64,000 nucleotides of DNA from an uncultured Gaiellales bacterium (GCA_964423425.1 CAYRES010000004.1:8736-72735), one strand, 5' to 3'. Shown: positions 13,973 through 28,237, numbered from the stretch's first letter. The notes: generated from the letters alone by a model not told the origin. Numbers and translations are program-made.

Positions 13973-15172
13973 CTACCCGTGCTTCTTCGCCAAGGCCTGC
14001 TGCAGCCTGGCGAGTGCGGGTTCAATCTCCTCCCAGGGGGCGGCAAAGCCCAGCCTCAGACACCCCTCTCCCTGCGAGCCAAAGAAGCCCCCCGGCACCA
14101 CGGCGACGCCTTCACGCCACAGGTACTCGGTCATGCCGGCCGAGGAGGGGTCGAGGGCGGAGGTGTCCAGGAAAACGTAGAAGCCGCCCTGGGGCTCGGG
14201 GCAAGAGACACCGGGAACGGCTTTCAGCGATGCGATCATCTTCTGCATGTTGTCTCTGCACAGAGCCCGGGACCAGTCGAGATAGCCGTCGCTTGCGGCC
14301 AGGAACTCCGACATGGCCCACTGGCCGATTGAAAGACTACAGAGGGAGATGCTCTCCTTGTAGGCTCCCATCTGGTGAATGAGCCACGGATGGGCGATCA
14401 CATGCCCGAGCCGCCAGCCGGTGACGGCGAAGGTCTTCGAGAAGCTGTTGACCACGATAAGGTTCTCTAGTTCACCGTGCGACAGCGCCGACGAGTGACT
14501 GCCGTCGTAGACGAAGTTGTGGTAAACGTCATCGGAGAGGATGAAGACTCCCTTCTCGCGAGCGACGGCAGTGAGTCGGGGCCAGTCTTCCGCGCTGAGG
14601 ACGGCGCCGGTGGGATTGGAGGGGGAGTTGACGCACACGAGCTTGGTGCGGTCAGTCATCCGTTCCAGGATGGCGTCGACGTCATATGTCCACGTACCGG
14701 CTCGAGCGAGGGGGTAGTAGATGAGTCGGGCCCCGCGCCGTTCGGCGACCGTGCGCATCATGCCCCAACCGGGGTCCGGAAGGAGCACCTCATCGCCTTC
14801 TTCCACCACGATGCGGAAGGCGAGATGGATGGCTTCCATACCCCCCACGGTCATCAGTACGCTTGTCTCGGGGTCAACGTCCACGTCCCACCGGCGCTTG
14901 GCGAAGTCGGCGACAGCCTCGCGCATGGCGGGTATGCCGTTGGTGGACGTGTAGAGGTTCTTGCCTTCCTCAAGAGCTCTGGCGGCCGCCTCGATGAGCT
15001 CCTGGGGTGCGCCGAAGGTGGCCTCGCCCATAGCGAGGCTCAAGACATCCGCTCGCTCCTCCATGAGCCGTTTGAGGGCCCGGATGGGGGAGCCCTGGCT
15101 CTCCTTCACAACTGAGTGAACACGTTCCAGAGCTTTGCCGGACCTGCTGTTACCCCTGCTCATGCGGCGCAC
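13973..15172 (-). CDS. Class I/II PLP-dependent aminotransferase
   Basis: 399 aa with LSLAMGEATFGAP, NGIPAMREAVA, VNSPSNPTGAV and SFSKTFAVTGWRLG (PLP Lys). It overlaps the upstream FAH-family gene by 13 nt. Confidence 0.88.
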   Translation of the reverse strand: MRRMSRGNSRSGKALERVHSVVKESQGSPIRALKRLMEERADVLSLAMGEATFGAPQELIEAAARALEEGKNLYTSTNGIPAMREAVADFAKRRWDVDVDPETSVLMTVGGMEAIHLAFRIVVEEGDEVLLPDPGWGMMRTVAERRGARLIYYPLARAGTWTYDVDAILERMTDRTKLVCVNSPSNPTGAVLSAEDWPRLTAVAREKGVFILSDDVYHNFVYDGSHSSALSHGELENLIVVNSFSKTFAVTGWRLGHVIAHPWLIHQMGAYKESISLCSLSIGQWAMSEFLAASDGYLDWSRALCRDNMQKMIASLKAVPGVSCPEPQGGFYVFLDTSALDPSSAGMTEYLWREGVAVVPGGFFGSQGEGCLRLGFAAPWEEIEPALARLQQALAKKHG

Positions 15173-16194
15173 TCCCGGTTGTCGACCACGTTGTTCTTCA
15201 AGCTGCCTATCTTCTCTATCTCCACCTCGATGGTGTCGCCGGGACGCAGGAAGACCCCACCACCGCTTTCCAGGTTGTCTATGAGGGCGGCAAGAGAGTG
15301 CTCCCCTTTGAGTCCCTTGGCCCAGCCGGTACCCGATCCCGTACCGAGCGCAAGCACGTCACCGGGCTGGAGTGTCGAGCAGGAGGAGGCGAAGGCGAGG
15401 CAGCGCTCCACCCCCCACAGCATGTTGGCGGTGGTGGTGTCCTGCATCACCCGGCCGTTCACGAGGCAGCGGATGCGCAGGTGGCCGGGTTCGGGGACGA
15501 GATCGCGGGGCACCAAGTAGGGGCCCAGGGGGGCGAAGCTATCACGGGACTTGCCACCGAAGAAGTCCAGCCCTCCGTCCGGCTTCATCATCTTACGGCG
15601 GTCGGTCACGTCATTGTGACAGGTGAAACCGGCGACATACTCCATGGCCTCCTCGGGGGCCACGTTCCGGGCGGTCTTTCCTATGATGACGGCCAATTCC
15701 GCTTCCCAGTCGACGTACGGGGATGACACGCAGATGGGTTGGCAGGGTCCGATGATGCAGTTCCGGTCGCCCTTCAAGAAGAAGTTGGGGGCGAAGGTGT
15801 CTTCATTGATGATGAGGCCCATCTCAGCGGCGTGGTCGCGGTAGTTCAGGCCCACATTCACCATCTTGCCCGGTGAGGGCACGGGGGAGAGCAAGAGGGC
15901 ATCGTGGAGAGGCACGGGGGAGAGGTAACTCTTGTCCTCCTCGCAGAGGACCCGGGCGAGCGCGGCGAGCAAGGGGGATGCCGATTCCCAGCGGTCGAGG
16001 AGGGTCTGCACCTGTGCCACCCTGAGGTCGAGAAAGGAAGGCTCATTCTCCTCTGCCGCCACCCGGGAACTTGTGGTGGGAAGATCGTAGACACGGTCTT
16101 GAACGACAATCGCGGCTACAGGGTAACCTGAGCTCAAGGTCGTGGCGACGGCGAAACGGTGCGGCGGAACGGCCGTTGGTGCTGCGGCCATGGC
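15160..16194 (-). CDS. Fumarylacetoacetate hydrolase (FAH) family protein
   Basis: FAH-fold motifs: GPCQPICVSSPYVDWEAELAVIIGK, HNDVTDRR and FDTTANMLWGVERCLAFASSCSTLQPGDVLALGTGSG. The start was taken at MAAAPT. Confidence 0.85.
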   Translation of the reverse strand, partial: AMAAAPTAVPPHRFAVATTLSSGYPVAAIVVQDRVYDLPTTSSRVAAEENEPSFLDLRVAQVQTLLDRWESASPLLAALARVLCEEDKSYLSPVPLHDALLLSPVPSPGKMVNVGLNYRDHAAEMGLIINEDTFAPNFFLKGDRNCIIGPCQPICVSSPYVDWEAELAVIIGKTARNVAPEEAMEYVAGFTCHNDVTDRRKMMKPDGGLDFFGGKSRDSFAPLGPYLVPRDLVPEPGHLRIRCLVNGRVMQDTTTANMLWGVERCLAFASSCSTLQPGDVLALGTGSGTGWAKGLKGEHSLAALIDNLESGGGVFLRPGDTIEVEIEKIGSLKNNVVDNRECAA

Positions 16195-16611
16195 GACCCT
16201 CCTCCTTGATGGCAAGGACTTCGGCAGGGTCTGCGGCAACCGGAATTCCGCGGCACCCGGCACTCGTGGTCCTGCTTGTGGTCTAATCTGTAGTCCACAA
16301 TGCTATACTACAGCATACAGACGCGCAATCCATGCGGTGGAGGCAGGCATGTGCAGGGGTTGAGCGCCTGTGGTGCAGCAGGGGATCGGCGGGGGCTTGA
16401 GCATCAGCTCAGAGGTCGCCTGCTCGGAGGTCGTCTGTTCCAACATATTGTCATACGTTACATCTGGTTGACAGAGAATGGCCCCTCCACTAAGCTTAGG
16501 GAGGCTCCGAGGAGGATCAGTCCGTGTGGGGTGGTGTCGCCGCAGCGGTGGTGAGGTGTAGACCGCTCTTGGGCCCGCGTCCCCACCGCGAATGAGGGGA
16601 GAGTCAGGTTC

Positions 16612-17871
16612 ATGACCGGCGACATGGTAGTGACCGGTGGCCTGAGAGAACTCAGGCAGGCCGTGCTCGGGACCGAGGTCTGCTCCGCCTGTGGAGCCTG
16701 CGTAGGTCTTTGCCCGTACATCAAGTGTGTGGAAGACCGGGTGGCGGCCGTGGCCGAATGCCGCAAGAGTGAGGGCCGCTGCTTTCTTTTCTGTCCTCGA
16801 GCCCACGGCCCCGAACTCACGGAATTCGTTGGGCAGCCGGGCAAGCTCACGCATGGTCTTGGCTCCTACCGCCGCCTCCTGGAGGGTCGCTCTCTCTCCC
16901 CGTCTCTGCAGCGATACGCCCAGCATGGAGGGGTGGTGTCGGCGCTCTTGGTCCACGCGCTCCGCGAAGGATTGATCGAGGCGGCCGTGCTTACCCGCCG
17001 GGCGCAAGGGCGTCCGGAACCCTTCCTTGCCCGCAGCGAGGAAGAGGTGCTCTCGGCGGCAGGCTCCACCTTCGCGGCCGCCCCCACCGTCGCCGAAGTC
17101 AACCGGGTGATGGTGGACGAGGGTCTGGCGGGGGTGCCACTTGGTGTAGTGGCCCTTCCCTGCCAGGCGGCTGCCCTGGCCCGCATGCGCCGAGCCGGCG
17201 AGCTTCGTGACACTCTCACGGCCGCCTCCGGATCGAGCGCCGAGAAGCCGGGCTCTGAGGAAGCCGTGCCCCACGTCCCCGATTGGCTGGACCGCCCCTT
17301 CCCCTCGATCGCTCTCGTCATCGGCCTCTTCTGCACCTGGGCTCTGAGCCAGGCCGGCTGGCGCCGGCTGCTGCGGGAAGCGGGTGTCGGCACCGAGAGA
17401 GGCAGCGACACGGGCGCGGGCAGCGGTGACGTGCCCGGCGCATCCACTCTGGTGCGGGCGGAGATCCCCCCGCCACCGGCTAATGTGCTGGAGTTCACCC
17501 TGGCCGACGGCGTGGTGAGGACGGTACCGCTCGACGAGGTACGCCCCCACATTCGTCCCGGCTGCCTGCTCTGCGCCGACATGACCTCGGAAGCCGCCGA
17601 TGTATCGGTGGGTCTGGTGGAAGGGAGGGAGGGCTGGAACACCATAATCTCCCGCACGGAGGTGGGCGACTCCCTGGTGAGGGGGGCCGAAGAGGCGGCT
17701 CTCATCCGCATCGAACCTCTCCAGGGAGAGCGGGCGGAGCATTTGTCCGGCGCTTCCCAGGGGAAGAAGGCGCGGGCCCGCGACAGGGCGCGCGAACGGG
17801 GCCTCGAACTCCCATACCTGAGCGAAGATGCGGGCCGGCCCGCGGCGGAAGAGAGGAGGGAGCATGGGTGA
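16612..17871 (+). CDS. FrhB/FdhB/FpoF-family flavin-[4Fe-4S] protein (coenzyme F420 hydrogenase/dehydrogenase beta-subunit-like)
   Basis: N-terminal CSACGACVGLCP cluster motif. Then the FrhB_N-like block (GGVVSALLVHALREGLIEAAVL...LSAAGSTF) and the FrhB_C-like block (LFCTWALSQ...GCLLCADMTSEAADVSVGLVEGREGWNTIISRTEVGDSL). Its last codons overlap the start of the second iorA. Confidence 0.8.
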   Translation: MTGDMVVTGGLRELRQAVLGTEVCSACGACVGLCPYIKCVEDRVAAVAECRKSEGRCFLFCPRAHGPELTEFVGQPGKLTHGLGSYRRLLEGRSLSPSLQRYAQHGGVVSALLVHALREGLIEAAVLTRRAQGRPEPFLARSEEEVLSAAGSTFAAAPTVAEVNRVMVDEGLAGVPLGVVALPCQAAALARMRRAGELRDTLTAASGSSAEKPGSEEAVPHVPDWLDRPFPSIALVIGLFCTWALSQAGWRRLLREAGVGTERGSDTGAGSGDVPGASTLVRAEIPPPPANVLEFTLADGVVRTVPLDEVRPHIRPGCLLCADMTSEAADVSVGLVEGREGWNTIISRTEVGDSLVRGAEEAALIRIEPLQGERAEHLSGASQGKKARARDRARERGLELPYLSEDAGRPAAEERREHG

Positions 17872-19927
17872 GCGTATCCTGCTCATGGGCAACGAAGCCA
17901 TCGCCCGCGGGGCGCTTGAGGCGGGGGTCTCCTTCTGTGCCGGCTATCCCGGCAACCCTTCCTCGGAGATCATAGACACCCTGCTCAAACACAAGACCCT
18001 ATGGCCCGACACCGCCTGGCCCACGCACGTAGAGTGGTCGGTCAATGAGATCGTGGCCATGGAAGCCGCCGCCGCCGCTGCCTTCACCGGCCTTCGTGCG
18101 TTGGTGGCCATGAAGCAGAACGGCATCAACGTATGCGCCGATTTCCTCACCACCGTGAACCTGACCGGTCTGGCCGGAGGAGCGCTGGTGGTGGTGGTGT
18201 GTGATGATCCCGGCCCCCTCACCAGCTCCAATGAGGAGGACTCCCGCTACTACGCCCGGTTGGCCATGTTGCCCCTGCTCGAGCCCTCCACCGCGCAGGA
18301 GGCCAAGGACGCCACGGCCTACGCCCTCGATCTGTCCGAGAGCAGCGGGCTCCCCGTGATCGTTCGGTCGGTCTCTCGCCTTTCTCACGGCCGCGGCCCG
18401 GTGAGCCTCGGCGTTCCCTCGCCTCCATCGCGTACCCCTCGCTTCGACCCGGCCACCCGACTCCTGGGTCTGCCTCATGTGGTCACTCGCAACCATGAGC
18501 GGCTTCTCGGCCTGCAGGAGGAGCTTCGCCTGGAGATGGAAGCCTCACCGCTGAACGCTTTCGTGGCGAATGCCGCGGAGGTGGCCGGCGGAGTGGGTGT
18601 AGCCACTACGGCGGATGCAGTCCTCGCAGAGAAGAGCACCCGCCTCGTCGTGGTGGCGGCCGGCTTGGGGGCGCTCTACGCCGATGAAGCCGTCAAAGAG
18701 ATAGGCAGGCTGCACCCCGAGGCCACCACCGGCTTGGGCGTGCTCAAACTGAGCGCCGTGTGGCCCTTCCCCCGCAATCTGGTGGCCGGCCACCTCGCCG
18801 GGGCTGAAGCGGTACTCGTGGTGGAGCAGGTGGAGCCCTTCGTGGAAGAACAGGTGCTCATGCTCCTTGGCGACGCGGAGGCGGGCCTTCCGCCTCTCAA
18901 GGTGTACGGCAAGGCGAGCGGGCACATGCCCGCCGCCGGTGAGATCGACTCCCACGATGTACTGGTGGCTCTGCGACGCATCTTGGCGCTCTCCGAAGGG
19001 AATGTATCCGCCAAGGGTTCGTTCCTCTCTGCGGAAAGCGGCTCAGGTGCCGTCGATACCCACGCCGAGGCCGACGCCTTGCGCCGCACCCAGGTACTCG
19101 AGGGGCTCCCACCGCGGGATATCAGCTTCTGCTTCGGCTGCCCCCACCGGGCCTCGTTCTACGCCATCAAAGCGGCAATGGCCCTGGACGGCCGTGAGGG
19201 TGTCGTCACCGGAGACATCGGCTGCTACGGCTTGGCCGCCGGGCCCACCGGCTTCTCTCAGCTCGCCACTCTGCACTGCATGGGGGCGGGGTTGGGCGAG
19301 GCCTCCGGCCTGGGAGTGTTGGGTCAGCTGGGCTTCACGCAGCCGGTGGTTGCCGTGGCCGGTGACTCCACCTTCTTCCACGCCTGTCTCCCCGCCCTCG
19401 TCAACGCCCGTTGGCAGAAGGCGGATGTGGTGTTCGTCATCCTGGACAACTCCACCACGGCGATGACCGGCTTCCAGCCTCATCCCGGCACCCCCTGCAG
19501 TCCGCTCGACCCCGAGAAGACTGTTGTCCTCCCCGAAGAGGTGTGCCGGGGAATGGGCGTGGAGACGGTGGTGGTGGATCCGGTGGCCGACCCCCGTGAG
19601 ACCGTCCGGCTTCTCTACGAGAGCCTCCAAGCGGGTGGTGTGCACGTGGTCATCATGCGCCGGGCCTGCGCCCAATACGAGAAGAAGGCGGGCTCAGCCG
19701 GACGTCGGAAGGCCATGGTTGTGGTGGAGAAGTGCCGGGGTGAGGAGTGCGGGTGCGACCGCTTCTGTAGCCGTATCATCGCCTGTCCGGGCAATCGCTT
19801 CGACCAGGAGACCGGCCGCGCCTACGTGGACCCCGACTACTGCAACGGCTGCGGCCTCTGTGTGGAGCTGTGTCCCTCCGGAGCACTCGTGTTGGCCGAC
19901 CCCCACACGCTGAAGGAGGGACGATGA
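17864..19927 (+). CDS. iorA: Indolepyruvate:ferredoxin oxidoreductase alpha subunit, second paralog
   Basis: [37 protein letters not shown]. TPP region [10 protein letters not shown]...[9 protein letters not shown]. C-terminal cluster motifs [14 protein letters not shown] and [12 protein letters not shown]. Confidence 0.9.
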   Translation: [687 protein letters not shown]

Positions 19928-20601
19928 GTGAGGAGAGGGTGTCAACAAGAAATGGCGAGGAGGTCCCCGTCAACTTGGTCTTCACCGGGGTGGGGGGCCA
20001 GGGCAACGTGATTGCTGCCAAGCTGGCCGGCAGCGCCCTGCTCGCGGCCGGCTTCGAGGTGGCGGTGGGGGATGTCTTCGGCCTCTCCCAGCGGGGTGGC
20101 TCAGTGGCGAGTCACGTGCGCTTTCACCGTGGAGCTCCTCTTCCGCCCCTCATTCCTCCGGGCAGGGCCGACTTCGTGGTGGGTTTCGAACCCCTGGAGG
20201 CGCTTCGGGTGCTCTGCCAGTTGGGTGGCCCCCACACCGGGGTGCTCACATCCACCGGAGATGTTCCTCCCACCGGGGTGCTCATGGGCACCTCCACCTA
20301 CCCCGAGGTCCAACAGCTCCTCGACGAGATGGCGCGGCTGGCCACGTTCGTCGTGCCCTTCGACGGTCTGGATCTGGCCCGACGGGCGGGTAACGTGCAG
20401 GCGCTCAACATGGTGATGGTGGGGGCGGCGACCGGTCTTGGCCTCCTACCCCTGACTGTCGAGGATCTCGTGCGCGAAGCCGAGGCGACCTTTGCTCCCA
20501 AACTTCGCTCTGTCAATCAGTCCGCCCTCGAACTCGGCTTCGAGTTGGGGGTGTCGGAGAGAGCGGGCCTCGAGCGTGGCGACAAAGAAAGGAAGGTTTA
20601 G
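19924..20601 (+). CDS. iorB: Indolepyruvate:ferredoxin oxidoreductase beta subunit, second paralog
   Basis: VNLVFTGVGGQGNVIAAKLAGSALLAAGFEV...GLSQRGGSVASHVRF. ATGA overlap with the iorA stop. Confidence 0.88.
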   Translation: MSEERVSTRNGEEVPVNLVFTGVGGQGNVIAAKLAGSALLAAGFEVAVGDVFGLSQRGGSVASHVRFHRGAPLPPLIPPGRADFVVGFEPLEALRVLCQLGGPHTGVLTSTGDVPPTGVLMGTSTYPEVQQLLDEMARLATFVVPFDGLDLARRAGNVQALNMVMVGAATGLGLLPLTVEDLVREAEATFAPKLRSVNQSALELGFELGVSERAGLERGDKERKV

Positions 20602-21507
20602 GTGTACAGAGTCTTGCAGCCTTTTGAGTACCTCGAAGCAAAGAGCGTCGACCACGCCGTGGAGCTTCTCACCCGCCTGGGTCCTGACGCCCGGGTCATC
20701 GCCGGAGGCACGGATCTCATCATCTCCATGAAGAAACGTGACCTGGCTCCGAAAGCCCTTATCGCCATTGGAGGGCTCAGCGAATTGAGCTTTCTCGAAG
20801 CCACGACCGAAGGTGGGCTTCGCATCGGGCCTCTGGTGACGCATGCGGCGGTCGCCGCTTCAGAGGTCGTCCGGGAACGTTTCGAGATGCTGGCGGTGGC
20901 AGCGGGGGAAGTGGGTACGCCACAGGTGAGGAACATGGGCACCCTAGGCGGCAACGTGTGCAAGGCCGGCCCCTCGCAGGACACTCCCCCGGTACTCATC
21001 GCCCTCGAGGCCGTGCTCACACTGCGGGGCCCCCACGGGGAGAGAAGCGTGCCGATGGGAGAATTCTGCACCGGTCCCTTCTGCACCGTTGTTGCTCCCG
21101 AAGAAGTTCTCACCGAGATCACCATCCCTCCGCTGCCGGAAGGCAGCGCCGGTTGTTACAAGTGGTGCACCAAGATCACGAAGGTGGATGAGACGCTGGC
21201 CGGGGCCGGTGTCGTGCTGTCACTGGCTGATGACGGTACCTGCAAGGACGTGCGCATCGGACTGGGCTCGGTTGCGCCCACGGCGATCCGGGCGCGGCAG
21301 GCCGAAGGGATGCTTCTCGGTACGAAGCTCGAACCGGGTGAGGTGGAGGCGGCGGCTGAGACGGCCTTCACCGAGTGCATGCCTCGCTCCCGGCCCGGTT
21401 ATCGCCGCCACATGGTGAGGGTGATGGTGAAGGACGCGGTCATGGAGCTCAAGGAGAAGATCGTGGGAGACAGTACGTCGAGTGACCCGGGGGAGGCGCC
21501 CCGATGA
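20602..21507 (+). CDS. Xanthine-dehydrogenase-family FAD-binding (medium, CoxM-like) subunit
   Basis: FEYLEAKSVDHAVELL......ARVIAGGTDLI is the molybdopterin-dehydrogenase FAD-binding N-terminus. 301 aa. Confidence 0.9.
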   Translation: MYRVLQPFEYLEAKSVDHAVELLTRLGPDARVIAGGTDLIISMKKRDLAPKALIAIGGLSELSFLEATTEGGLRIGPLVTHAAVAASEVVRERFEMLAVAAGEVGTPQVRNMGTLGGNVCKAGPSQDTPPVLIALEAVLTLRGPHGERSVPMGEFCTGPFCTVVAPEEVLTEITIPPLPEGSAGCYKWCTKITKVDETLAGAGVVLSLADDGTCKDVRIGLGSVAPTAIRARQAEGMLLGTKLEPGEVEAAAETAFTECMPRSRPGYRRHMVRVMVKDAVMELKEKIVGDSTSSDPGEAPR

Positions 21508-21986
21508 AGACTCTGGCCAACTTCGTGGTGAACGGCGAACCGTATGAACTTGCCATCGAGCCGAATCTTCTTCTCATAGAGGTGCTCCGGGACGAACTCG
21601 GGCTGACGGGTACGAAGCACAGCTGTGGAGTCGGCAACTGCGGTGCCTGTACCGTTCTCGTCGAGGGGGAACCGGTGCTTGCCTGTCTCAGTCTGGCCAT
21701 GGCTGCGCGAGGAAAGGCCATCACCACCATCGAGGGCTTGGCCGAAGGCCCCACCCTACATCCGCTCCAAGAGGCCTTCATCGAGGTGGGGGCCATTCAG
21801 TGCGGCTATTGCACGCCGGGCATGATCCTCACCGCGAAGGCTCTGCTTGACAAGAAACCCGACCCCACCGAGGAGGATGTCCGTGAAGCCTTGGCGGGCA
21901 ACATCTGCCGCTGTACCGGTTACGTGAAGATTATTGAGGCGGTACTCGCTGCTGCCGAGGCCATGCGGAAGGGGGCGGCCCGATGA
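21504..21986 (+). CDS. (2Fe-2S)-binding small subunit of molybdenum hydroxylase (CoxS-like)
   Basis: Plant-type plus second 2Fe-2S motifs: CGVGNCGACTV....C and CGYCTPGM....CRCTGY. Confidence 0.92.
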   Translation: MKTLANFVVNGEPYELAIEPNLLLIEVLRDELGLTGTKHSCGVGNCGACTVLVEGEPVLACLSLAMAARGKAITTIEGLAEGPTLHPLQEAFIEVGAIQCGYCTPGMILTAKALLDKKPDPTEEDVREALAGNICRCTGYVKIIEAVLAAAEAMRKGAAR

Positions 21987-24286
21987 ACGAGGAGTTCAGC
22001 GTTGTAGGTAAGAGGATTCGCCAGCCCGATGGTCCGGCCAAGGCCACCGGGGAAGCCAAGTTCGTGGGTGACCTTCGCATGCCGGGCATGCTCATCGCCA
22101 AAGTGCTCCGCAGTCCCCACGCCCATGCCCGGGTGGCGGCCATAGACACGAGTAGGGCTGAGGCGCTTCCCGGTGTGGCTGCGGTACTCACGCCGGATGA
22201 CCTCGAGGACTGGAGCGGCTTCGACCGGGGCATGAAGGACATGCCGCTGGTGGCCGGGGGGTACCGCATCCCACCTGAAGAACAGGTGGTCAACCGCGTC
22301 GCCCGCCACTATGGGGATGCCGTGGCGGCTGTCGCCGCCGTCAACGAACACATCGCCGAAGAGGCCCTCTCGCTGCTCGAGGTGGAGTACGAGGTGCTGC
22401 CCTTCGTGCTGAACGCTGAGGAAGCCCTGCGTTCCGGGGCGCCGCAGGTGACGGAAGCCGCTCCCGGCAACATCGGCAAGCACCTGTCGTATCCCTACCC
22501 CGAGGGCGACGTCGATCAGGCTCTCGCCGAAGCCGATCTGGTGGTGGAGGGCGAGTTCCAGACCACGAAGCAGGATCACTGCACCCAGGAGACGGCGGCC
22601 TGCCTTGCCTATGTGGATGCGTCCGGGCGTCTCAACGTATGGTCGCAATGCCAGCTGGCCCACCTGGCCCGGCGCGAACTGGCGAATATCTTCAACCTGC
22701 CGGTCCACAAGGTGAAGATCATGACGCCGTTCGTGGGAGGCAGTTTCGGCCAGCGCGGCGCCCTCTGTGCGGAGCCGGTGGCGGTCGCCTTGGCGCTCAA
22801 GACCAACAAGCCGGTCAAGCTGGTCTTCTCCCGGGAGGACAACTTCTTGGGGCTCGAGAGCCGCACCGGTTTCGACAACATCCACGTGCGTCTGGGGTTC
22901 AAGAAGGACGGCACCCTCACGGCAATCAAGACGAATATGCTTGGCCATCTGGGTGGGTACATGGGCTGTGGCCCCATGGCGTCGGTCATCGGCATGACGC
23001 TCTCCATGGGCCATTACCGCTGTCCCAACCGGTACGGCGACGCCGACATGGTGATGACGAACATCCCGGTGTCCGGCGCCATGAGGGGTTTCGGCAACGA
23101 TGCCATGATGTTCTGCATCGAGCAGTTGGTGGACGAAGCGGCCGAGAAGTTGGGCCTCGATCCCATCGATATCCGGCTGAAGAACACCAAACAGCCGGGC
23201 GAAACGGCCTCCATGGGGCTCATGCTGGAGAGCAGTTACCTGGAGGACTGCATGCGGGCCGGCGCTGAGAGGTTCGGCTGGCAGGAGCTGCGCTCACAGC
23301 CCAAGGAGACCGAGGGACGCATCAGGCGCGGTTGCGGCATGGCCACCATGAGCCACTGCACCGGCGCCGCACCTCTGTATCTGGAACACTCCAACGCCAT
23401 GGTGAAGTTCAACGAGGACGGCTCGGTCAACCTCACCGTGTATCCCGCTCCCGTGGGCACGCATATCTGGGGTGCTCTTTCCCAGATCTGCGCCGAGGAA
23501 CTCGGTATCGGGGTCGAAGACGTGAGCATCGTTACAGGCGACACCGACATCACCCTGTTCGAGTACGGTTCCGACGCAAGCCGCTCCACCTACGCCATCG
23601 GAGGCGCCACACTGAGGGCGGCGCGGAAGGCCAAGGAACAGTTGCTGGCTCATGCGGCGGAGATGCTCGAAGTTCCTCCGGACCAGCTGGAGACGCGGGA
23701 CAGACGAGTGTTCTCCAAGGCCGACCCCAACAAGAGTATCGACGTGGGTGAGGTGTGCTACGACGCCATCTACAGCTTCGGGGGAGAGGCCACGAACTTC
23801 GCGGGCAAGCAGTCGTTCGAGCCGACGTGGAACTCACCCACCTTCGGCGCTTACTTCGCCGAGGTCGAGGTCGATACCGAGACCGGCCGCGTGTGCGTGA
23901 CCCGTTTCGTGACCGCCATCGACTGCGGCAAAGCCATCAATCCCATGGCGGTGGAGGGCCAGCTCGAGGGAGGCCTTCAGCAGGGCCTGGGTTACGCCTT
24001 GACGGAGAACTTCCTGGTGAACGAGACCACGGGCAAGGTGGAGACCACGAACTACGACAGCTATAAGGTGCCGGGCACGCTCGACATGCCGCACAGTGAA
24101 GTCATCATCGTCGACAAACCCGACCCCAAGGGCCCGTTCGGAGCCAAGGGGGTGGGAGAGCCGGGTATGGTGGGGATTCCCCCTGCCATAGCCAACGCCA
24201 TATACGACGCGATTGGAGTGAGGATCCATAGTCTGCCCATGACCCCTGAACGGATCCTGGCGGCACTGGCTGAGAAGGACGACTGA
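21983..24286 (+). CDS. Xanthine-dehydrogenase/aldehyde-oxidoreductase-family molybdopterin-binding large subunit
   Basis: 767 aa. Has the generic XDH-family GAMRGFG motif, not the CODH AYRCSFR motif. Also KVKIMTPFVGGSFGQRG and a C-terminal GVGEPGMVGIPPAIANAIYDA block. Confidence 0.9.
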   Translation: MNEEFSVVGKRIRQPDGPAKATGEAKFVGDLRMPGMLIAKVLRSPHAHARVAAIDTSRAEALPGVAAVLTPDDLEDWSGFDRGMKDMPLVAGGYRIPPEEQVVNRVARHYGDAVAAVAAVNEHIAEEALSLLEVEYEVLPFVLNAEEALRSGAPQVTEAAPGNIGKHLSYPYPEGDVDQALAEADLVVEGEFQTTKQDHCTQETAACLAYVDASGRLNVWSQCQLAHLARRELANIFNLPVHKVKIMTPFVGGSFGQRGALCAEPVAVALALKTNKPVKLVFSREDNFLGLESRTGFDNIHVRLGFKKDGTLTAIKTNMLGHLGGYMGCGPMASVIGMTLSMGHYRCPNRYGDADMVMTNIPVSGAMRGFGNDAMMFCIEQLVDEAAEKLGLDPIDIRLKNTKQPGETASMGLMLESSYLEDCMRAGAERFGWQELRSQPKETEGRIRRGCGMATMSHCTGAAPLYLEHSNAMVKFNEDGSVNLTVYPAPVGTHIWGALSQICAEELGIGVEDVSIVTGDTDITLFEYGSDASRSTYAIGGATLRAARKAKEQLLAHAAEMLEVPPDQLETRDRRVFSKADPNKSIDVGEVCYDAIYSFGGEATNFAGKQSFEPTWNSPTFGAYFAEVEVDTETGRVCVTRFVTAIDCGKAINPMAVEGQLEGGLQQGLGYALTENFLVNETTGKVETTNYDSYKVPGTLDMPHSEVIIVDKPDPKGPFGAKGVGEPGMVGIPPAIANAIYDAIGVRIHSLPMTPERILAALAEKDD

Positions 24287-24381
24287 GGAGCCGGTGCCGG
24301 GCGATGCCGAGGGAAGGAGCAAGAGGCACTGCCATGGGGAACGCGGACGGGTCACCGCCACCCGGGTCTGCCGGCCGGACC

Positions 24382-25584
24382 ATGGCGTACTTGGATAACG
24401 CGTGCCTGGGTAGGCTTGGCCCGGAGTCGGCGGCGTGGGCTCGGGATGTCGTGGGCCGTCTCGAACGACCCGCCGGCCCGCCCACGGAGCTGGTCGTGGA
24501 GCTCTATCAGACGTACCCGCGTGCCCGTGCGTTGGCTGCCGCACTCGTGGGGGTCGACGAACAGCGTATCGCTCTCGTGGAGAGCACGTCACACGGGCTG
24601 GGTATGGTGGCCGCGGCTCTCCCTCTTTCGTCAGGCGACAATGTCTTGGTATGCGACCTGGAGTTCTTCCCCTCGGCCCTCTGCTGGCGGGCCCGAGCAG
24701 AAGCAATTGACCTGGAGGTGCGGCCGGTCCGGACTGCCGGTGGACGTGTCGGCGCGGTGGATTTCGAGCGCCATCTCGACGAACGGACCAAGGCCATTGT
24801 GGTGAGTGCCGTACAGGAGATCAACGGCTTCCGGGCACCCCTCGCCGATCTCTGCCGGATGGCCCACGCGGCCGGCGTCATGGTGATCGTGGACGGCGTG
24901 CAGGAAGTCGGCTGTCTGAACATCGACCTCGGCGGCGCGTACGACGAGTGCCCCGATGTGTACTGTGCGGGTGGGCACAAGTGGCTATGCAACCCGTTCG
25001 GCGTAGGCTTCATGTGTGTGCATGCCCGTGCACTCGACCTGCTCAAGCCGGCCTTCTACGGCTACTTCAACGCGGCCGAGCCCGATGATGGCTGGGGCTC
25101 GTATCTGGCCTCGCCGGAGCGCACACCGTTCGACCCCCTGCCCCTTCTTCCCGGGGCGCAACGCTTCGAGAGCGGGGGAATGGGCAACTTCTTGGGAGCG
25201 GCGGTGCTCGGCGCCAATCTGGAAGCGCTTCTTGCCAGGGGCATGGACAGGGTGGAGGCAGAGGTGAAGTCCCTCGGAGAACGCCTGGTCGAGGGTATCG
25301 AGGGCTTGGGTCTCGAAGTGCGCTGCTCTCTGGTCGGGGCTGAACGTTCCGGCATCACCGTGTTCGGCTTGCCCGGAGGCTTTCAGGCCGAGCTGGAGCT
25401 GAACGACTACCTGGCTTCCCACGGGGTGTATGTGTCGGTGCGCTATACGTCGGGAGTGGGTGGCGTTCGTGTTTCCCCCCACGTGCACAACGATTCTGTT
25501 GATGTCGACAGGCTGCTGGAAGCGACGGAGACGTGGCTCGGTTTCGCGAAATACTCGAGGCAGGAGTCTCGCGAAGGTTTATGA
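24382..25584 (+). CDS. Class V aminotransferase-fold PLP enzyme (NifS/cysteine-desulfurase-like)
   Basis: PLP-lysine motif GGHKWLCNPFGVGFM and fold-type-I class V N-terminal region. The start could be as early as 24304. It follows the Mo-subunit gene directly. Confidence 0.75.
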   Translation: MAYLDNACLGRLGPESAAWARDVVGRLERPAGPPTELVVELYQTYPRARALAAALVGVDEQRIALVESTSHGLGMVAAALPLSSGDNVLVCDLEFFPSALCWRARAEAIDLEVRPVRTAGGRVGAVDFERHLDERTKAIVVSAVQEINGFRAPLADLCRMAHAAGVMVIVDGVQEVGCLNIDLGGAYDECPDVYCAGGHKWLCNPFGVGFMCVHARALDLLKPAFYGYFNAAEPDDGWGSYLASPERTPFDPLPLLPGAQRFESGGMGNFLGAAVLGANLEALLARGMDRVEAEVKSLGERLVEGIEGLGLEVRCSLVGAERSGITVFGLPGGFQAELELNDYLASHGVYVSVRYTSGVGGVRVSPHVHNDSVDVDRLLEATETWLGFAKYSRQESREGL

Positions 25585-25979
25585 TGAAAGATGGGGGATA
25601 TGGGTCGGCCCGAGGGTGCCAAGGTCTTGACAAGAAGGGTATCCGTGGTCTAATAGGTAAACCGCACATCCTACCGCGTGAGCGGTTCCAGCAAGGCATC
25701 CCGACGCCCGCTGGATGTGCGAGGACGGAATTGATGGGGAACCGAACGGGAACTATTCAGTCTTGGCGTCTATCTGTACGATCAACACGTCTTGTTCGCG
25801 GGTGTGCGATAGGAAGGAGGTAAAGGGGTAGTACCAGCGCAAGAGGTGCCGGGGCATATCTCGACGTGTCCAGGTGGCCTGCGTCGTGAGGCTGATGTTT
25901 CGTCTCCCAGGCGCGTTGTTGTGCAAAAGCACTTCTGAAGCAAGGTTCACTCTCCAGAACCCAAGAAGGGGGTTGCTCT

Positions 25980-27212
25980 GTGAGAATTCGTTCAACAGTT
26001 CTTGTGGTCATTCTTATGTTGATTGCGGCGCTCTCGGTTGTTGTCGCCGGCTGCGGCGGAACCGAAGAGACAACTACTACCACTGCTGCCGGAGGCGACG
26101 AGACCACAACCACCGCGCCTTCCACAGGCGAAGTCATCGAGGTCAAGATCGCTGCTCAAGGTCCGTTCAGCGGGCAGCTTTCCAAGATCGGTCTCGACGC
26201 TCTTCAGGCCGTTGAGTTGGCGGTAGAAGAATTCAACGAGTCGCAGGACCAGATCAGGGTCACGGTTGAGGTGGGCGACGACGTGGCCGACCCGGCGAAA
26301 TCAGCGTTGTTGGCTGAGAAGTTCGTCTCCGACGCGTTGGTGATGGGTGTCATCGGCCCCATGAACAGCTCCGCCGGCCAATCGGCGCTCCCGGTGTTGG
26401 AGCCCGCCGGCCTGGCGCTGATCACCCAGTCGATGACGGCCGTCGAGCTCTCTCAGCAGGGCTACGCCGTGTTTCACCGGATCTGCCCGCGTGACGACGC
26501 CCAGGGTGCCGGCATCGCCGGGATCATGGCCGTCGATGTGGGGGCCGAGAAGGTCTACATGATCGACGACAAGAGCACCTACGGCCAGGGCCTGGCCGAC
26601 GAGGTGGAAGGCCTGCTGCGCGACAAGTACGGCATCACCGAGATCCAGCGTGACCAGATCGGGCCCGACGACAAGGAGTTCTCGACGCTGATCACCAAGA
26701 TCCGGGCCTTCGATCCGGATGTGTTCTTAGCCTGCATCCCCAGCCCGGCCCAGTATGCCGCCATCGCCAAGCAGATGCAGGCGGTGGGTTACCAGGTGCA
26801 GCTGGTCGGAGCCGATGCTGCAAACGACAAGGGTGAGTTCGTCGATGCCGCTGGCGATGCCACCGAGGGCACCCTCTTTACGTCGCTGGGGCCCATCGTG
26901 ACGGCCTCCACCAACCCGGCCACCGTGGCTTTCGTGGAGAAGTACCTCGATCGTTTCGGTGAGCTTTCAATGTTCTCCGCGCAGAGCTATGAAGCGGCCA
27001 ACGTGCTGCTCGACGCCATTGTGCGCGCCTACGAGGCCAATGGCGAAGTGACCCGTGAAGGTGTGCTCGAAGCGCTGAAGGCCACCAGCTACGACGGCGT
27101 TCTCGGCTTCACCATCGAGTTCACCGATCAGGGCGACCTTGCCTCCTCCGGTGTGTTCATCGGGCAAGTCAAGGACGGCGACTTCGTCTTGGTCAAAGAG
27201 GCGAACTTCTAG
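25980..27212 (+). CDS. ABC transporter substrate-binding lipoprotein, branched-chain/hydrophobic amino-acid (LivJ/LivK) family
   Basis: Lipoprotein signal peptide (LIAALSVVVAGCGG), a Thr/Glu-rich linker, then a type-I periplasmic binding fold (IKIAAQGPFSG...VMGVIGPMNSSAG). Confidence 0.85.
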   Translation: MRIRSTVLVVILMLIAALSVVVAGCGGTEETTTTTAAGGDETTTTAPSTGEVIEVKIAAQGPFSGQLSKIGLDALQAVELAVEEFNESQDQIRVTVEVGDDVADPAKSALLAEKFVSDALVMGVIGPMNSSAGQSALPVLEPAGLALITQSMTAVELSQQGYAVFHRICPRDDAQGAGIAGIMAVDVGAEKVYMIDDKSTYGQGLADEVEGLLRDKYGITEIQRDQIGPDDKEFSTLITKIRAFDPDVFLACIPSPAQYAAIAKQMQAVGYQVQLVGADAANDKGEFVDAAGDATEGTLFTSLGPIVTASTNPATVAFVEKYLDRFGELSMFSAQSYEAANVLLDAIVRAYEANGEVTREGVLEALKATSYDGVLGFTIEFTDQGDLASSGVFIGQVKDGDFVLVKEANF

Positions 27213-27303
27213 ACAGCAGCGCAGCAGGACTGTCGGCAAATCTACCGCGGGAGGAGGGGCTTCGCCGCTCCTCCCGCCCGAACCCTCGAACGGGGACGTG
27301 TAG

Positions 27304-28230
27304 ATGGGACAACTCATAACGCAGCAAGTGATCAATGGGCTGGCCCTGGGTTGCGTGTACGGTCTCGTGACCCTGGGCTATTCCATGGTATATGGCATCT
27401 TGGAGATGCTGAACTTCGCTCACGGTGAAGTGTTCATGATCGGGGGCATGATCGGGTTCTATATCCTGCAGGTCTTCCTCGGCCCGGCCGGCCTCAACGC
27501 TCCCGCAGCCTTGGTGCTTCTGCTGATGATGATCGGAGCCATGGCCGGCTGTTCGCTCTTGGGTATGGGCATTGAGTTCATCGCCTACCGCCCCCTGCGC
27601 AAAGGGGGCGCCTCTCGACTGGCCGTGCTCATCACCGCCTTGGCCATGTCCATACTCCTACAGAATCTCACCGCTCTCTTCCTGGGCACGCGGGCCAAGG
27701 ACTACAGCACCTATCTGCTCATTCCCTCCGATTGGATCATCCGTCTGGGTACCATCACCATTACCGGCACCCAGGTCTTGATTATCTCCGTGACGATCAT
27801 TTCCATGTTGGCAGTCGACCTTTTCGTGCGCCGCACCCGCTTCGGCAAGGCCATGCGGGCCACCAACAATGACCGCGACGCCGCTCCCTTCATGGGCATC
27901 AGCGTGAATTTCATCGTCACCCTCACCTTCTTGGTGGGCTCGGCTCTTGCGGGTATAGGTGGAGTCCTCGTGGGTCTGTACTGGACTCAGGTGGACTTTT
28001 TCATGGGTTTTGCCGCCGGATTCAAGGCCTTCACGGCCGCAGTGCTCGGTGGTATCGGCAATCTGCGCGGGGCCATGCTGGGCGGGCTGCTTCTGGGTCT
28101 GGCCGAGAGCTTGGCCATCGCGTTTATCTCACCCACCTACAAGGATGCCATCGCCTTGGTCATTCTGGTGTTGGTGCTCTTGGTGAGGCCACAGGGTCTC
28201 TTGGGCGAGCAACTCCCGGTGAAAGTGTAG
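27304..28230 (+). CDS. Branched-chain amino-acid ABC transporter permease (LivH-like)
   Basis: 308-aa polytopic membrane protein. LivH-type N-terminus MGQLITQQVINGLALGCVYGLVTLGYSMVYGIL. Confidence 0.88.
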   Translation: MGQLITQQVINGLALGCVYGLVTLGYSMVYGILEMLNFAHGEVFMIGGMIGFYILQVFLGPAGLNAPAALVLLLMMIGAMAGCSLLGMGIEFIAYRPLRKGGASRLAVLITALAMSILLQNLTALFLGTRAKDYSTYLLIPSDWIIRLGTITITGTQVLIISVTIISMLAVDLFVRRTRFGKAMRATNNDRDAAPFMGISVNFIVTLTFLVGSALAGIGGVLVGLYWTQVDFFMGFAAGFKAFTAAVLGGIGNLRGAMLGGLLLGLAESLAIAFISPTYKDAIALVILVLVLLVRPQGLLGEQLPVKV

Positions 28231-28237
28231 GTGTGAC

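Follow-up and report, generated by a model that had tools for sequence, protein, structure and literature searches.

OFORs with a built-in pyridine-nucleotide reductase include phenylglyoxylate:NAD+ oxidoreductase (PadEFGHI) and the pyruvate:NADP+ oxidoreductase of Euglena and Cryptosporidium. In the FrhB family, the zeta subunit docks at ferredoxin's place and turns CODH and Fwd into F420 reducers (Lemaire, Wegener & Wagner 2024, PMC11493965); for CODH with this protein (FrhB7/zeta), biochemical and structural proof of F420 reduction was given in 2024 (PMC11493965). ANME-1 'FrhB6' paralogues are clustered with pyruvate:ferredoxin oxidoreductase, and F420 reduction has been proposed for them (Chadwick et al. 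2022, PMC9012536). Hence, the pairing of FrhB with a 2-oxoacid oxidoreductase already has a genomic precedent, and the statement in the first-pass annotation of the locus described here, that no FrhB-like gene had been described with a 2-oxoacid:ferredoxin oxidoreductase, does not hold (PMC9012536).

We analysed a 64,000-nt stretch of DNA from an uncultured Gaiellales bacterium (the window), in which an FrhB-like gene, iorA and iorB head a seven-gene block. Judging from genome comparison, the noteworthy part is this three-gene unit (the triad), which is conserved in hundreds of anaerobes, bacterial as well as archaeal.

Gene content and signals of the block

Gene reading and Pfam/NCBIfam searches bore out all seven annotated plus-strand ORFs and their domain content at 16612–25584:

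16612–17871, plus strand: FrhB-like iron-sulfur flavoprotein, 419 aa (Pfam, profile versus PDB, AF2)
17864–19927, plus strand: iorA2, IorA-type TPP/Fe-S subunit of the FrhB-linked subfamily, 687 aa (TIGR03336, motif alignment)
19924–20601, plus strand: IorB-type subunit (POR gamma-like domain), 225 aa (Pfam POR 7.6e-29)
20602–21507, plus strand: FAD subunit, CoxM/CutM type, no extra Fe-S loop (FAD_binding_5 and CO_deh_flav_C)
21504–21986, plus strand: 2x[2Fe-2S] small subunit (Fer2_2 4.5e-34 and Fer2; NCBIfam)
21983–24286, plus strand: molybdopterin-binding large subunit (Ald_Xan_dh_C, MoCoBD_1, MoCoBD_2)
24304 (or 24334)–25584, plus strand: class-V-fold PLP enzyme, 416–426 aa (Aminotran_5 5e-30)

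The genes had been described as packed with 1–4-nt overlaps. Read from the sequence, the junctions are, in order, an 8-nt overlap, a 4-nt overlap, a 0-nt gap (TAG then GTG), two more 4-nt overlaps and a spacer of 17 nt (47 nt if the start of the public gene call is used for the PLP gene); the description comes close but is not exact. This tight packing, including the TAG-GTG adjacency of iorB and the FAD-subunit gene, suggests co-transcription. A sequence scan revealed no convincing plus-strand terminator or promoter consensus inside the block, and terminator-like hairpins lie downstream of it (25875–25913). A Shine-Dalgarno-like GGAAGG is found within iorB, and independent assemblies of the window's organism (L001–L006) carry the identical seven-gene order.

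The surroundings of the block contain the following features:

5986–7185, minus strand: aminotransferase, beside the iorB1/iorA1 group (Pfam)
7259–8542, minus strand: Glu/Leu/Phe/Val dehydrogenase, beside iorB1/iorA1 (Pfam)
8618–9214 and 9214–11007, minus strand: iorB1 and iorA1, canonical IOR pair (Pfam, gene table)
13147–13917, plus strand: GntR/FCD regulator (Pfam)
13973–15172, minus strand: class I/II aminotransferase, divergent from the operon (Pfam)
15160–16263, minus strand: FAA-hydrolase-family protein, divergent from the operon (Pfam)
16264–16611, plus strand: upstream intergenic region, common to the divergent FAA-hydrolase/aminotransferase pair
25980–31039, plus strand: Liv-type amino-acid ABC transporter, with binding protein, permease and a permease-ATPase-ATPase fusion ORF (Pfam)

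The upstream intergenic region may serve as promoter/operator. It contains a candidate –35 element (TTGACA, 16467–16472) and AT-rich repeats such as TGGTCTAATCTGTAGTCCACA, possible operators of the GntR/FCD regulator encoded nearby. A consensus scan of 16264–16611 found no strong sigma-70 site, and the region matched no Rfam family. The canonical IOR group (5986–11040) has no FrhB-like gene according to Pfam and the gene table. In a Syntrophomonadaceae MAG, too, the triad is flanked by an aminotransferase and an FAA-hydrolase.

The FrhB-like protein is of the zeta type

The first ORF encodes a genuine FrhB-family flavo-FeS protein, as had been proposed, with both Pfam domains above the gathering threshold (FrhB_FdhB_N, PF04422, 1.9e-17, 63.6 bits versus cut-off 22; FrhB_FdhB_C, PF04432, 2.3e-24, 86.4 bits versus 23.3). 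An N-terminal 2x[4Fe-4S] ferredoxin domain (C24, C27, C30, C34, C50, C57, C61; CxxCxxCxxxCP plus Cx6Cx3CP in residues 24–62) precedes a core with the FAD motifs Q104-x-G106-G107 and G151-S152 and the cluster motif PC-Xn-C-Xn-C-X2-C (C184, C241, C318, C321). Q104, G106, G107, G151, S152, P183 and the four core cysteines are invariant or nearly so in 22 homologues, and in a profile alignment the FAD motifs (QxGG pyrophosphate loop, GS/TKY..P loop and PCQ loop) and the Cys motifs align with those of FrhB and zeta. They correspond to the QDGG motif and Cys134 loop of FrhB (PMC3930138) and to the PCXnCXnCX2C motif described for Fsr (Fsr preprint). Two lineage-specific loops (about residues 197–228 and 262–280) have low model confidence.

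A profile built from the 22 homologues and compared with the PDB gave zeta as the top match (8RIU_B, 370 aa; E 2.5e-80, residues 7–354), followed by FrhB, FwdI (8RJA_E) and Fsr. These four score 177–273 bits, and HCAR, a non-F420 relative, only 53 bits. The AF2 model (pLDDT 81.7, pTM 0.86) has 8RIU_B and 8RJA_E as its best Foldseek matches (target-normalised TM 0.81 and 0.84). With a ferredoxin domain fused to an FrhB core and an end-to-end match, the protein falls in the zeta/FwdI type. Models for bona fide FrhB/FpoF (TIGR03289, NF006807, NF040616) were rejected (114–135 bits versus 269–331; 72 versus 475). These equivalog cut-offs are missed widely; the protein is no subunit of a hydrogenase or of Fpo, and the gene annotation shows no frhA/G genes nearby.

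The FrhB-like gene and iorAB form a conserved unit

IOR models are the top matches for both partner subunits, but the equivalog cut-offs are not reached. IorA (POR_N, TPP_enzyme_C and 2x4Fe-4S domains) matches TIGR03336 with E 2e-153 (511.7 bits versus 650.9), and IorB matches TIGR03334 with E 2e-44 (152–155 bits for the IOR beta models versus 206–238). The iorA2 product has an 'ALDGR' insertion at 439–444, and its first ferredoxin motif reads C624-x4-C629-x-C631-x3-C635-x5-C641-P instead of CxxCxxCxxxC. This 5-Cys motif (Cx4CxCx3Cx5C) is present in 69/69 intact FrhB-linked IorAs and in 0/2 unlinked ones, and the window's iorA1 has the canonical CxxCxxC. FrhB-linked IorAs are also longer (median 634 versus about 595 aa) and group with iorA2, apart from iorA1 (mean identity of the iorA2 product 47% to FrhB-linked IorAs versus 37% to iorA1). 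By these features, they form a subfamily of their own.

FrhB-like relatives were found in 478 species-representative genomes. Among the 80 best related loci, iorA directly follows the FrhB-like gene in 75 (75 of the 78 not cut by a contig end), far beyond chance; the linkage is neither fortuitous nor unique to this genome. Triad hosts in this set belong to Chloroflexota, Thermodesulfobacteriota, Bacillota, Spirochaetota, Bathyarchaeia and Hadarchaeales, and in the archaeal triads FrhB-like and IorA share one bacterial nearest neighbour. Pairwise identities of FrhB-like and IorA proteins correlate with r = 0.92 (0.74 for pairs below 60% identity), partly due to shared phylogeny; the values for IorA and IorB are 0.96 and 0.82. 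Taken together, the two-domain synteny, the distinct linked IorA subfamily and the divergence of the proteins in step argue that the linkage is functional.

The FrhB-like protein might instead be a soluble ferredoxin:F420 (or ferredoxin:acceptor) oxidoreductase that re-oxidises the ferredoxin of IOR rather than a stable subunit, a role reported for free FpoF in Methanosarcina. Gene order alone does not separate a subunit from a co-expressed partner; the FrhB-like gene stands without adjacent iorAB in three loci, and its spacing to iorA has a median of 33 nt, with gaps of 30–100 nt common (iorA to iorB: median –4 nt in 65 loci). We nevertheless consider this explanation unlikely. The electron-exit ferredoxin motif of the linked IorAs is remodelled in a form found only with the FrhB-like gene, co-divergence of FrhB-like and IorA is as tight as that of IorA and IorB, the two reading frames overlap by 8–17 nt in the closest relatives, and the proteins nearest in structure are subunits held tightly in their complexes. 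We therefore favour a three-subunit enzyme.

The molybdenum hydroxylase and the PLP enzyme are local additions

The three genes behind iorB encode a member of the xanthine oxidase/aerobic CODH family, with all Pfam domains and, in the translated large subunit, GAMRGFG and a C-terminal KGVGE catalytic-Glu motif. The FAD / 2x[2Fe-2S] / Mo-pterin layout is that of HcrABC (1RM6), XdhABC and CutMSL/CoxMSL. HcrA is closest to the large subunit among solved structures (4-hydroxybenzoyl-CoA reductase alpha, 1RM6_A, 371 bits), and the best NCBIfam models, XdhA (622 bits, <780) and HcrA (530 bits, <995), stay below their equivalog cut-offs. The FAD subunit is colinear with CutM (1FFU_C), whereas HcrB and PaoB, whose sequences contain a 4Fe-4S insertion, align with no more than its first ~120 residues. 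An HcrABC identity was rejected (530 versus 995 and 107 versus 405 bits; HcrB aligns over residues 26–121 only, and its [4Fe-4S] loop is missing here). So was a Mo-Cu CODH (CoxL form I), as the loop is GAMRGFG and not VAYRCSFR and TIGR02416 gives 347 versus 991 bits, in agreement with the first-pass annotation.

The class-V enzyme had been labelled NifS-like. It has the class-V fold and the PLP-lysine motif (GGHKW) in common with SufS, CsdA and NifS, but the catalytic cysteine of cysteine desulfurases is absent: the C-terminal loop region, VSVRYTSGVGGVRVSPH, holds no Cys, and the SufS alignment stops before the Cys364 loop. Because the persulfide-forming cysteine is lacking and the SufS model reaches 88.7 bits versus a cut-off of 475, a cysteine desulfurase (NifS/IscS/SufS/CsdA) was rejected; the protein is probably an aminotransferase or lyase and not a sulfur-mobilising NifS.

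It had also been proposed that the products of the block make up a single electron-transfer unit of seven proteins, with the FrhB-like subunit as the route by which both IOR and the Mo hydroxylase would feed or draw electrons. The tight packing, the TAG-GTG adjacency, the GGAAGG within iorB and the gene order, constant on all assemblies of the window's organism, are in line with it. However, a survey of the neighbourhood recovered the triad but not the larger arrangement: the Mo trio and the PLP gene occur in 0/80 related loci and are also absent from the closest relatives (57% and 46% identity). Moreover, homologues of the trio at 68–77% identity stand alone in unrelated neighbourhoods, and the trio owns a complete CutM-type FAD subunit. 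These comparative data largely refute the seven-product unit, which we regard as highly improbable. By the same comparison, the Mo trio is a separate, self-sufficient cassette with its own FAD exit, a local add-on that would have been inserted behind iorB in the window's lineage and is probably co-transcribed.

Identity of the acceptor

The three-subunit architecture could also hold with an FrhB-like FAD that reduces another acceptor or a pathway intermediate, such as NAD(P)+, free flavin, another deazaflavin such as Fo, or quinone. The FrhB fold can take other substrates, as HCAR shows; HCAR and BciB, both of this fold, reduce chlorophyll intermediates. Near the proposed substrate channel, the family has an invariant IPPPPA lid where FrhB and zeta have DIG-KGKF, which counts against F420; F420-contacting residues have never been seen in FrhB-type structures (PMC3930138, Fsr preprint). 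We found no F420 biosynthesis genes in the window plus about 9 kb past its right end, and F420 genes are not enriched among 140 genes flanking triads. The window does contain a Mer-like LLM (35242–36252), which is not assignable as F420-dependent because its homologues, from Pseudomonadales and Sphingomonadales, bear generic names. Many triads are hosted by Deltaproteobacteria/Desulfobacterota, Dehalococcoidia and Spirochaetes; the part of the 2021 F420 review available to us makes no mention of the first two and does not name Spirochaetes (PMC8498797). Since F420 production is not known from many of the host phyla, F420 as acceptor is kept tentative.

On the other side, the close characterised relatives zeta, FwdI, FrhB and Fsr all use F420 and far outscore HCAR. 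We know of no FrhB-family member that binds NAD(P), which speaks against NAD(P)+. Among the hosts, Bathyarchaeia and Chloroflexi are predicted or shown to make F420, and the same part of the review lists Chloroflexi, Firmicutes and Bathyarchaeota (PMC8498797). A different acceptor is thus conceivable but doubtful, and F420 is the one we prefer.

Proposed mechanism

Overall, we suggest, with a probability of about 0.55, that the block is a mosaic operon of amino-acid/2-oxoacid catabolism whose core is a three-subunit IorAB/FrhB-like enzyme, most probably reducing F420. The best reading of the triad is an "all-in-one" arylpyruvate/2-oxoacid:F420 (or other acceptor) oxidoreductase. IorA and IorB would convert arylpyruvate or a related 2-oxoacid to acyl-CoA by oxidative decarboxylation, and electrons from the TPP site would exit via the iron-sulfur clusters of IorA. 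They would next enter the N-terminal 2x[4Fe-4S] domain of the FrhB-like protein, docked, as we infer, on IorA in place of free ferredoxin, and pass through its core [4Fe-4S] cluster to FAD. The FAD would then reduce a two-electron acceptor by hydride transfer, with coenzyme F420 as the most probable candidate. The reaction would be irreversible and would produce a hydride carrier, not reduced ferredoxin.

Reverse operation for reductive carboxylation had been raised as well; here F420H2, entering at the FrhB-like subunit, would drive the carboxylation of arylacetyl-CoA for aromatic amino-acid synthesis. IOR is anabolic in methanogens, and in Fsr and Fpo the FrhB-type module works in both directions. 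Yet this direction would be about 150 mV uphill (F420 about –340/–350 mV versus about –500 mV for the 2-oxoacid couple; PMC9012536, bioRxiv 10.1101/2022.04.07.487323; the argument for PFOR is in PMC9012536) and is thermodynamically implausible. Gene neighbourhoods also point the other way: around triads we found aminotransferases, amino-acid dehydrogenases, 2-hydroxyacid enzymes, CoA-transferases and Liv uptake transporters, by which the setting is catabolic. We give reverse operation very little credence and retain the oxidative direction.

More broadly, and tentatively, the triads may represent a large unrecognised class of ferredoxin-bypassing 2-oxoacid oxidoreductases with a zeta-type FrhB flavoprotein, in bacteria (Dehalococcoidia, Thermodesulfobacteriota, Syntrophomonadaceae, Spirochaetota) and archaea (Bathyarchaeia, Hadarchaeales). 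If so, either F420 or another deazaflavin would be a mainstream catabolic electron carrier in bacterial phyla where such use is not known, or the FrhB fold would have been adapted to a new physiological acceptor; either way, 'frhB' counts from MAG surveys would be no indicator of hydrogenases.

Comparison with known systems

Like PadEFGHI and the pyruvate:NADP+ oxidoreductase, the proposed enzyme would combine an OFOR core with a flavoprotein that diverts electrons from ferredoxin to a hydride carrier; the flavoproteins of those systems are of the ferredoxin-NADP reductase or P450-reductase type, unrelated to the FrhB fold. Canonical IorAB (TIGR03336/TIGR03334) is the best family match of both subunits and has the same domain order, but the FrhB-linked pair differs in about 40 extra residues, the 5-Cys motif, sub-equivalog scores and an obligately associated third gene.

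Among solved structures, zeta of Ca. Ethanoperedens thermophilum (8RIU, 8RJA; PMC11493965) is nearest to the FrhB-like protein in sequence and fold, end to end: both consist of the ferredoxin domain, the FrhB-type FAD/[4Fe-4S] domain and a helical extension at the C-terminus, and both share an operon with an oxidoreductase that normally depends on ferredoxin. The partner is CODH or Fwd there and an IOR-type 2-oxoacid oxidoreductase here, identity is only about 22–26%, and the lids differ. Zeta coupling was reported as specific to ethanotrophic archaea (PMC11493965), whereas the FrhB-like/IorAB family is widespread in bacteria. ANME-1 FrhB6, compared here by linkage and proposed role, is likewise an FrhB paralogue that clusters genetically with a 2-oxoacid:ferredoxin oxidoreductase, and oxidative F420 reduction has been proposed for it along the same lines (PMC9012536). 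It is archaeal, lineage-restricted and paired with PFOR, whereas the triad has a two-subunit IorAB-type partner with its own signature and extends over several bacterial phyla and two archaeal lineages.

The seven-gene block and its surroundings

Seven successive plus-strand ORFs occupy positions 16612-25584 of the window, which has ~63% G+C. Pfam and NCBIfam bore out the domain assignments that the first-pass annotation had made for all seven products.

Genes of the block (assignments from Pfam and NCBIfam)
16612-17871, +, protein with FrhB_FdhB_N and FrhB_FdhB_C domains
17864-19927, +, IorA-like protein
19924-20601, +, IorB-like protein
20602-21507, +, Mo hydroxylase FAD subunit
21504-21986, +, Mo hydroxylase 2Fe-2S subunit
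21983-24286, +, Mo hydroxylase Mo subunit
24304/24334-25584, +, class-V PLP enzyme

In the DNA sequence the junctions are, in order, an 8-nt overlap, a 4-nt overlap, a zero gap (TAG followed by GTG), two 4-nt overlaps and a 17-47 nt spacer. The packing with 1-4-nt overlaps described earlier thus holds at three junctions, and the first overlap, the direct adjacency and the spacer depart from it. A consensus scan found no convincing promoter or terminator inside the block, and hairpin-plus-T terminator-like sites (two hairpins) lie 3' of it at 25875-25913. Several independent metagenome assemblies of this organism share the seven-gene order, and the existence of the block as first described is confirmed.

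Amino-acid catabolism genes lie on both sides of the block according to Pfam and the gene tables. On the upstream side, the minus strand carries two class I/II aminotransferases, a Glu/Leu/Phe/Val dehydrogenase and a second, canonical iorA1B1 pair; a racemase, a threonine-aldolase-like enzyme and a GntR/FCD regulator lie on this side too. An FAA-hydrolase-family gene is divergent from the operon on its upstream side, and a Liv-type amino-acid ABC transporter lies downstream. Within the latter region, an uninterrupted 933-aa ORF (28238-31039, +) joins a LivM-type permease domain to two ABC ATPase domains (LivG- and LivF-like); unless it is a sequencing artefact, it would be an unusual three-in-one Liv fusion. 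The operon is flanked by two long non-coding gaps (16264-16611 and 25585-25979), neither of which matches any Rfam family; the Rfam scan found no regulatory RNA near the operon. In the upstream gap there is a TTGACA at 16467, and its repeats, of the type TGGTCTA...GTAGTCCACA / ATACTACAG, are possible operators for a GntR/FCD regulator. The downstream gap includes the two hairpins named above.

An FrhB-family protein outside hydrogenases

The first ORF was recognized by both FrhB_FdhB_N and FrhB_FdhB_C profiles, in agreement with its first-pass assignment to the FrhB family. However, its scores fell far short of the FrhB and FpoF equivalog cut-offs of NCBIfam, and no hydrogenase genes were found in its neighborhood in the window; hence, the protein is not a hydrogenase subunit. 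The best match in a profile search of the PDB was the zeta subunit of an F420-reducing CO dehydrogenase.

PDB profile matches of the FrhB-like protein
8RIU_B, zeta subunit of F420-reducing CODH, 273 bits (E 2.5e-80, residues 7-354 of 370)
3ZFS_C, FrhB (core only), 195 bits
8RJA_E, FwdI, 192 bits
7NP8_A, Fsr, 177 bits
7BKB_E, FdhB, 62 bits
5DQR_A, HCAR, 53 bits

An AlphaFold2 model (pLDDT 81.7, pTM 0.86) likewise has 8RIU_B and 8RJA_E as its best fold matches. Both come from Ca. Ethanoperedens thermophilum, the second being FwdI of its F420-reducing formylmethanofuran dehydrogenase, and both dock at the site of ferredoxin and enable their partner enzymes to reduce F420 (Lemaire et al., PMC11493965).

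In an alignment of 22 homologs, invariant or nearly invariant residues mark the N-terminal 2x[4Fe-4S] ferredoxin domain (CxxCxxCxxxCP and Cx6Cx3CP), the FAD loops QxGG, GSKY..P and PCQ known from FrhB (PMC3930138), and the PC-Xn-C-Xn-C-X2-C cluster motif described for Fsr (bioRxiv 10.1101/2022.04.07.487323). In the lid region, the IOR-linked family has an invariant IPPPPA, in contrast to DIG-KGKF of FrhB and zeta. Two Ala/Gly/Ser/Glu-rich insertions (residues ~197-228 and ~262-280), where model confidence is low, are present only in the window protein and its 57%-identity relative among the homologs aligned.

A conserved FrhB-like/iorA/iorB triad

The FrhB-like protein has hundreds of homologs at 35-57% identity. 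Using the 22-homolog alignment to scan one genome per GTDB species, we found relatives encoded in 478 genomes; the synteny counts below rest on the best 80 loci from these. The 80 loci come from Chloroflexota (including Dehalococcoidia), Thermodesulfobacteriota (Desulfobacteraceae, Syntrophales, Desulfarculaceae), Syntrophomonadaceae, Spirochaetota, Bathyarchaeia and Hadarchaeales. As located by tblastn with the window proteins, iorA lies directly 3' of the FrhB-like gene in 75/80 loci (median distance 33 nt), and iorB comes next, with a median spacing of -4 nt over the 65 loci that could be scored. The neighborhood is therefore conserved as far as FrhB-like plus iorAB are concerned. Two of the five exceptions are at contig ends and three truly have no adjacent iorAB; at these three (L059, L071 and L079) the neighbors are an altronate-dehydratase-like gene, an M48 peptidase, and an HD-domain protein with a sigma-54 regulator.

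In the closest relatives (57% and 46% identity) the triad genes overlap, and beyond them come class I/II aminotransferases, a GntR/FCD regulator and a Liv transporter. A Pfam census of the 140 genes immediately flanking the triads revealed no conserved fourth partner. These flanks are variable sets of 2-oxo/2-hydroxy-acid and amino-acid genes, including aminotransferases, D-lactate-dehydrogenase-like FAD oxidases, LarA/LUD proteins, 2-hydroxyacid dehydrogenases and CoA-transferases.

Two loci have unusual architectures. At L096:586-2478, a single ORF (protein P0017) joins a class I/II aminotransferase fragment to an FrhB-like protein, followed by an apparently split iorA (35 + 603 aa) and iorB. 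This is either a Rosetta-stone fusion tying the triad to transamination or a frameshifted assembly; being a single case with a possible frameshift, it was excluded as evidence. A 'Proteobacteria' MAG (L074:2-7149) carries iorA-iorB, an FrhB-like gene and a second iorA-iorB, with the linked-type five-Cys motif described below in both IorAs, which suggests that a single FrhB-like subunit may work with two paralogous IOR cores.

The FrhB-linked IorA is specialized

FrhB-linked IorAs are longer (median 634 aa) than the two unlinked ones compared, IorA1 of the window and the IorA of locus L093 (590-597 aa). Linked proteins are on average 47% identical to iorA2, the triad IorA of the window, versus ~38% to iorA1; the unlinked two share 54% identity with each other. 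In 69/69 intact linked IorAs the first ferredoxin motif, CxxCxxCxxxC, is changed to C-x-G-E-x-C-G-C-x3-C-x5-C-P (C624, C629, C631, C635 and C641 in the window protein), and an 'ALDGR' insertion beside the TPP-proximal cluster motif is common to them. Both unlinked IorAs (2/2) keep the canonical motif. The five-Cys motif of IorA, together with GLFCTWAL, CxxCxDMT[AS]E and IPPPPA in the FrhB-like protein, can serve as recognition signatures for the triad.

Across 60 intact triads, pairwise identities of FrhB-like proteins and IorAs are correlated with r = 0.92 (0.74 in pairs below 60% identity), almost as closely as those of the genuine partners IorA and IorB, with r = 0.96 (0.82); shared ancestry inflates such values. 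For archaeal triads the nearest neighbor is the same Chloroflexota triad for FrhB-like and IorA proteins alike. Overall, synteny, the remodeled electron-exit domain of IorA and the identity correlations indicate that the triad is a co-inherited functional unit.

The Mo hydroxylase and the PLP enzyme stand outside the triad

Neither a Mo hydroxylase nor a class-V PLP gene was found at any of the best 80 loci (0/80) or beside the 57% and 46% relatives. In turn, the FAD-FeS-Mo trio occurs at 68-77% identity in unrelated neighborhoods, with heme biosynthesis, chemotaxis or proline racemase genes. The first-pass proposal of a seven-gene redox complex is therefore not sustained. Since its homologs travel in this way, the trio is best described, from gene context, as a self-contained cassette that in this lineage sits after iorB. 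Co-transcription with the triad is probable, and the trio may be functionally related to it.

The closest solved structure to the Mo subunit is the alpha subunit of 4-hydroxybenzoyl-CoA reductase (371 bits) and its nearest NCBIfam model is E. coli-type XdhA, with no equivalog cut-off reached. The FAD subunit is colinear with CutM, and the Fe-S loop of HcrB/PaoB is absent from it. We rejected 4-hydroxybenzoyl-CoA reductase as the identity of the Mo enzyme, given the failed equivalog scores and the missing HcrB loop; a plausible activity is hydroxylation of aryl-aldehydes or heteroaromatics.

In the class-V PLP protein the PLP lysine is retained, and the loop that bears the persulfide-forming Cys of SufS/NifS has no Cys; the NifS function assigned to it at first is not upheld. 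We also discarded the idea that it serves the Mo enzyme as a Moco-sulfurase or NifS, as the catalytic Cys is missing and the gene is not conserved beside the trio. In the closest relatives, the corresponding place in the operon is taken by class I/II aminotransferases.

Proposed mechanism and electron acceptor

The coupling of FrhB to IOR suggested at first is upheld by synteny, fold, cofactor motifs and IorA specialization. The FrhB-like protein is likely the dedicated electron-exit flavoprotein of the IOR. By analogy with the zeta and FwdI systems, we infer that the triad proteins form a complex acting as an all-in-one 2-oxoacid oxidoreductase. A 2-oxoacid (arylpyruvate or related) would be decarboxylated at TPP, and electrons would pass via the IorA clusters to the ferredoxin domain of the FrhB-like protein, then through its core cluster to FAD, from which a hydride would be transferred to F420. 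The 2-oxoacid couple lies at ~-500 mV and F420 at ~-340/-350 mV (PMC9012536; bioRxiv 10.1101/2022.04.07.487323); therefore, the reaction would be irreversible and run in the oxidative direction only, contrary to the reductive carboxylation that had also been envisaged.

We put F420 as the acceptor at roughly even odds, because of several considerations. No F420 biosynthesis genes were found in the window and ~9 kb past its right end, an absence that is uninformative because these ~73 kb are only part of the genome. Nothing F420-specific occurs among the 140 triad-flanking genes. A 2021 review of F420 distribution names Chloroflexi, Firmicutes and Bathyarchaeota; Deltaproteobacteria/Desulfobacterota and Dehalococcoidia are not mentioned in it, nor are Spirochaetes named in its relevant passages (PMC8498797). 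F420 is not resolved in the FrhB or Fsr structures (PMC3930138; bioRxiv 10.1101/2022.04.07.487323), and the IPPPPA lid segment of the family differs from the DIG-KGKF of FrhB and zeta.

The window also encodes a luciferase-like oxidoreductase (35242-36252, +) for which every top NCBIfam match is to an F420-dependent LLM family (Mer-like, 218 bits, short of the cut-off). Its homologs at 56-63% identity carry generic names and come from Pseudomonadales, Sphingomonadales and Thermoleophilia, so we dropped it as a sign of F420 use by the host.

Other clusters in and beside the window

At 55116-57457 (+), a 460-aa gene with the Pfam domain CpgS_N (cyclic 2,3-diphosphoglycerate synthetase N-terminal domain) directly precedes a 2-phosphoglycerate kinase (NCBIfam 285-300 bits). 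Both belong to the cDPG pathway, and the pair is familiar from hyperthermophilic methanogens; here it stands in a bacterial-looking 63% G+C contig. Just past the right end of the window (L097:428-9668), a hydantoinase A/B pair, acyl-CoA ligase, carboxyltransferase, biotin carboxylase and biotin carrier together resemble a catabolic cluster of acetone/acetophenone-carboxylase-like or oxoprolinase-like type.

Significance and comparison with known systems

Oxidation of amino acids and 2-oxoacids in anoxic sediments is usually modeled as ferredoxin-reducing. A built-in hydride-carrier exit, if true, would alter what is predicted for energy conservation and redox balance in abundant uncultured groups, among them Dehalococcoidia, Desulfobacterota and Bathyarchaeia, and would extend the 2024 "all-in-one" F420-reducing CODH/Fwd discovery past a narrow archaeal specialization. 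With three genes and a simple spectrophotometric assay, the system is a biochemically testable target, of interest to specialists in anaerobic metabolism. Genes of the IOR-linked family routinely receive the label 'coenzyme F420 hydrogenase subunit beta', and MAG surveys have taken them as markers of hydrogenases (e.g. PMC10116835), a reading that is very likely mistaken.

Full-text literature searches found no paper linking an FrhB-like gene with IOR. However, the initial statement that no FrhB-like subunit had been described with a 2-oxoacid:ferredoxin oxidoreductase does not hold: in ANME-1, 'FrhB6' paralogs lie beside pyruvate:ferredoxin oxidoreductase and 'FrhB7' beside CODH alpha/epsilon, and oxidative F420 reduction was proposed for both systems (Chadwick et al. 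2022, PMC9012536). The zeta subunit encoded in the ACDS operon has been validated in an ethanotroph, by authors who view the coupling as ethanotroph-specific and their system as the first known case of an added reductase subunit (PMC11493965); in our reading, and assuming orthology, this would confirm the FrhB7-type prediction. Given these precedents, the IOR-linked family is a variation on a known theme rather than categorically new. It differs from the ANME-1 and ethanotroph systems in that its partner is a two-subunit IOR with a distinctive five-Cys motif, and in its much wider, mostly bacterial distribution.
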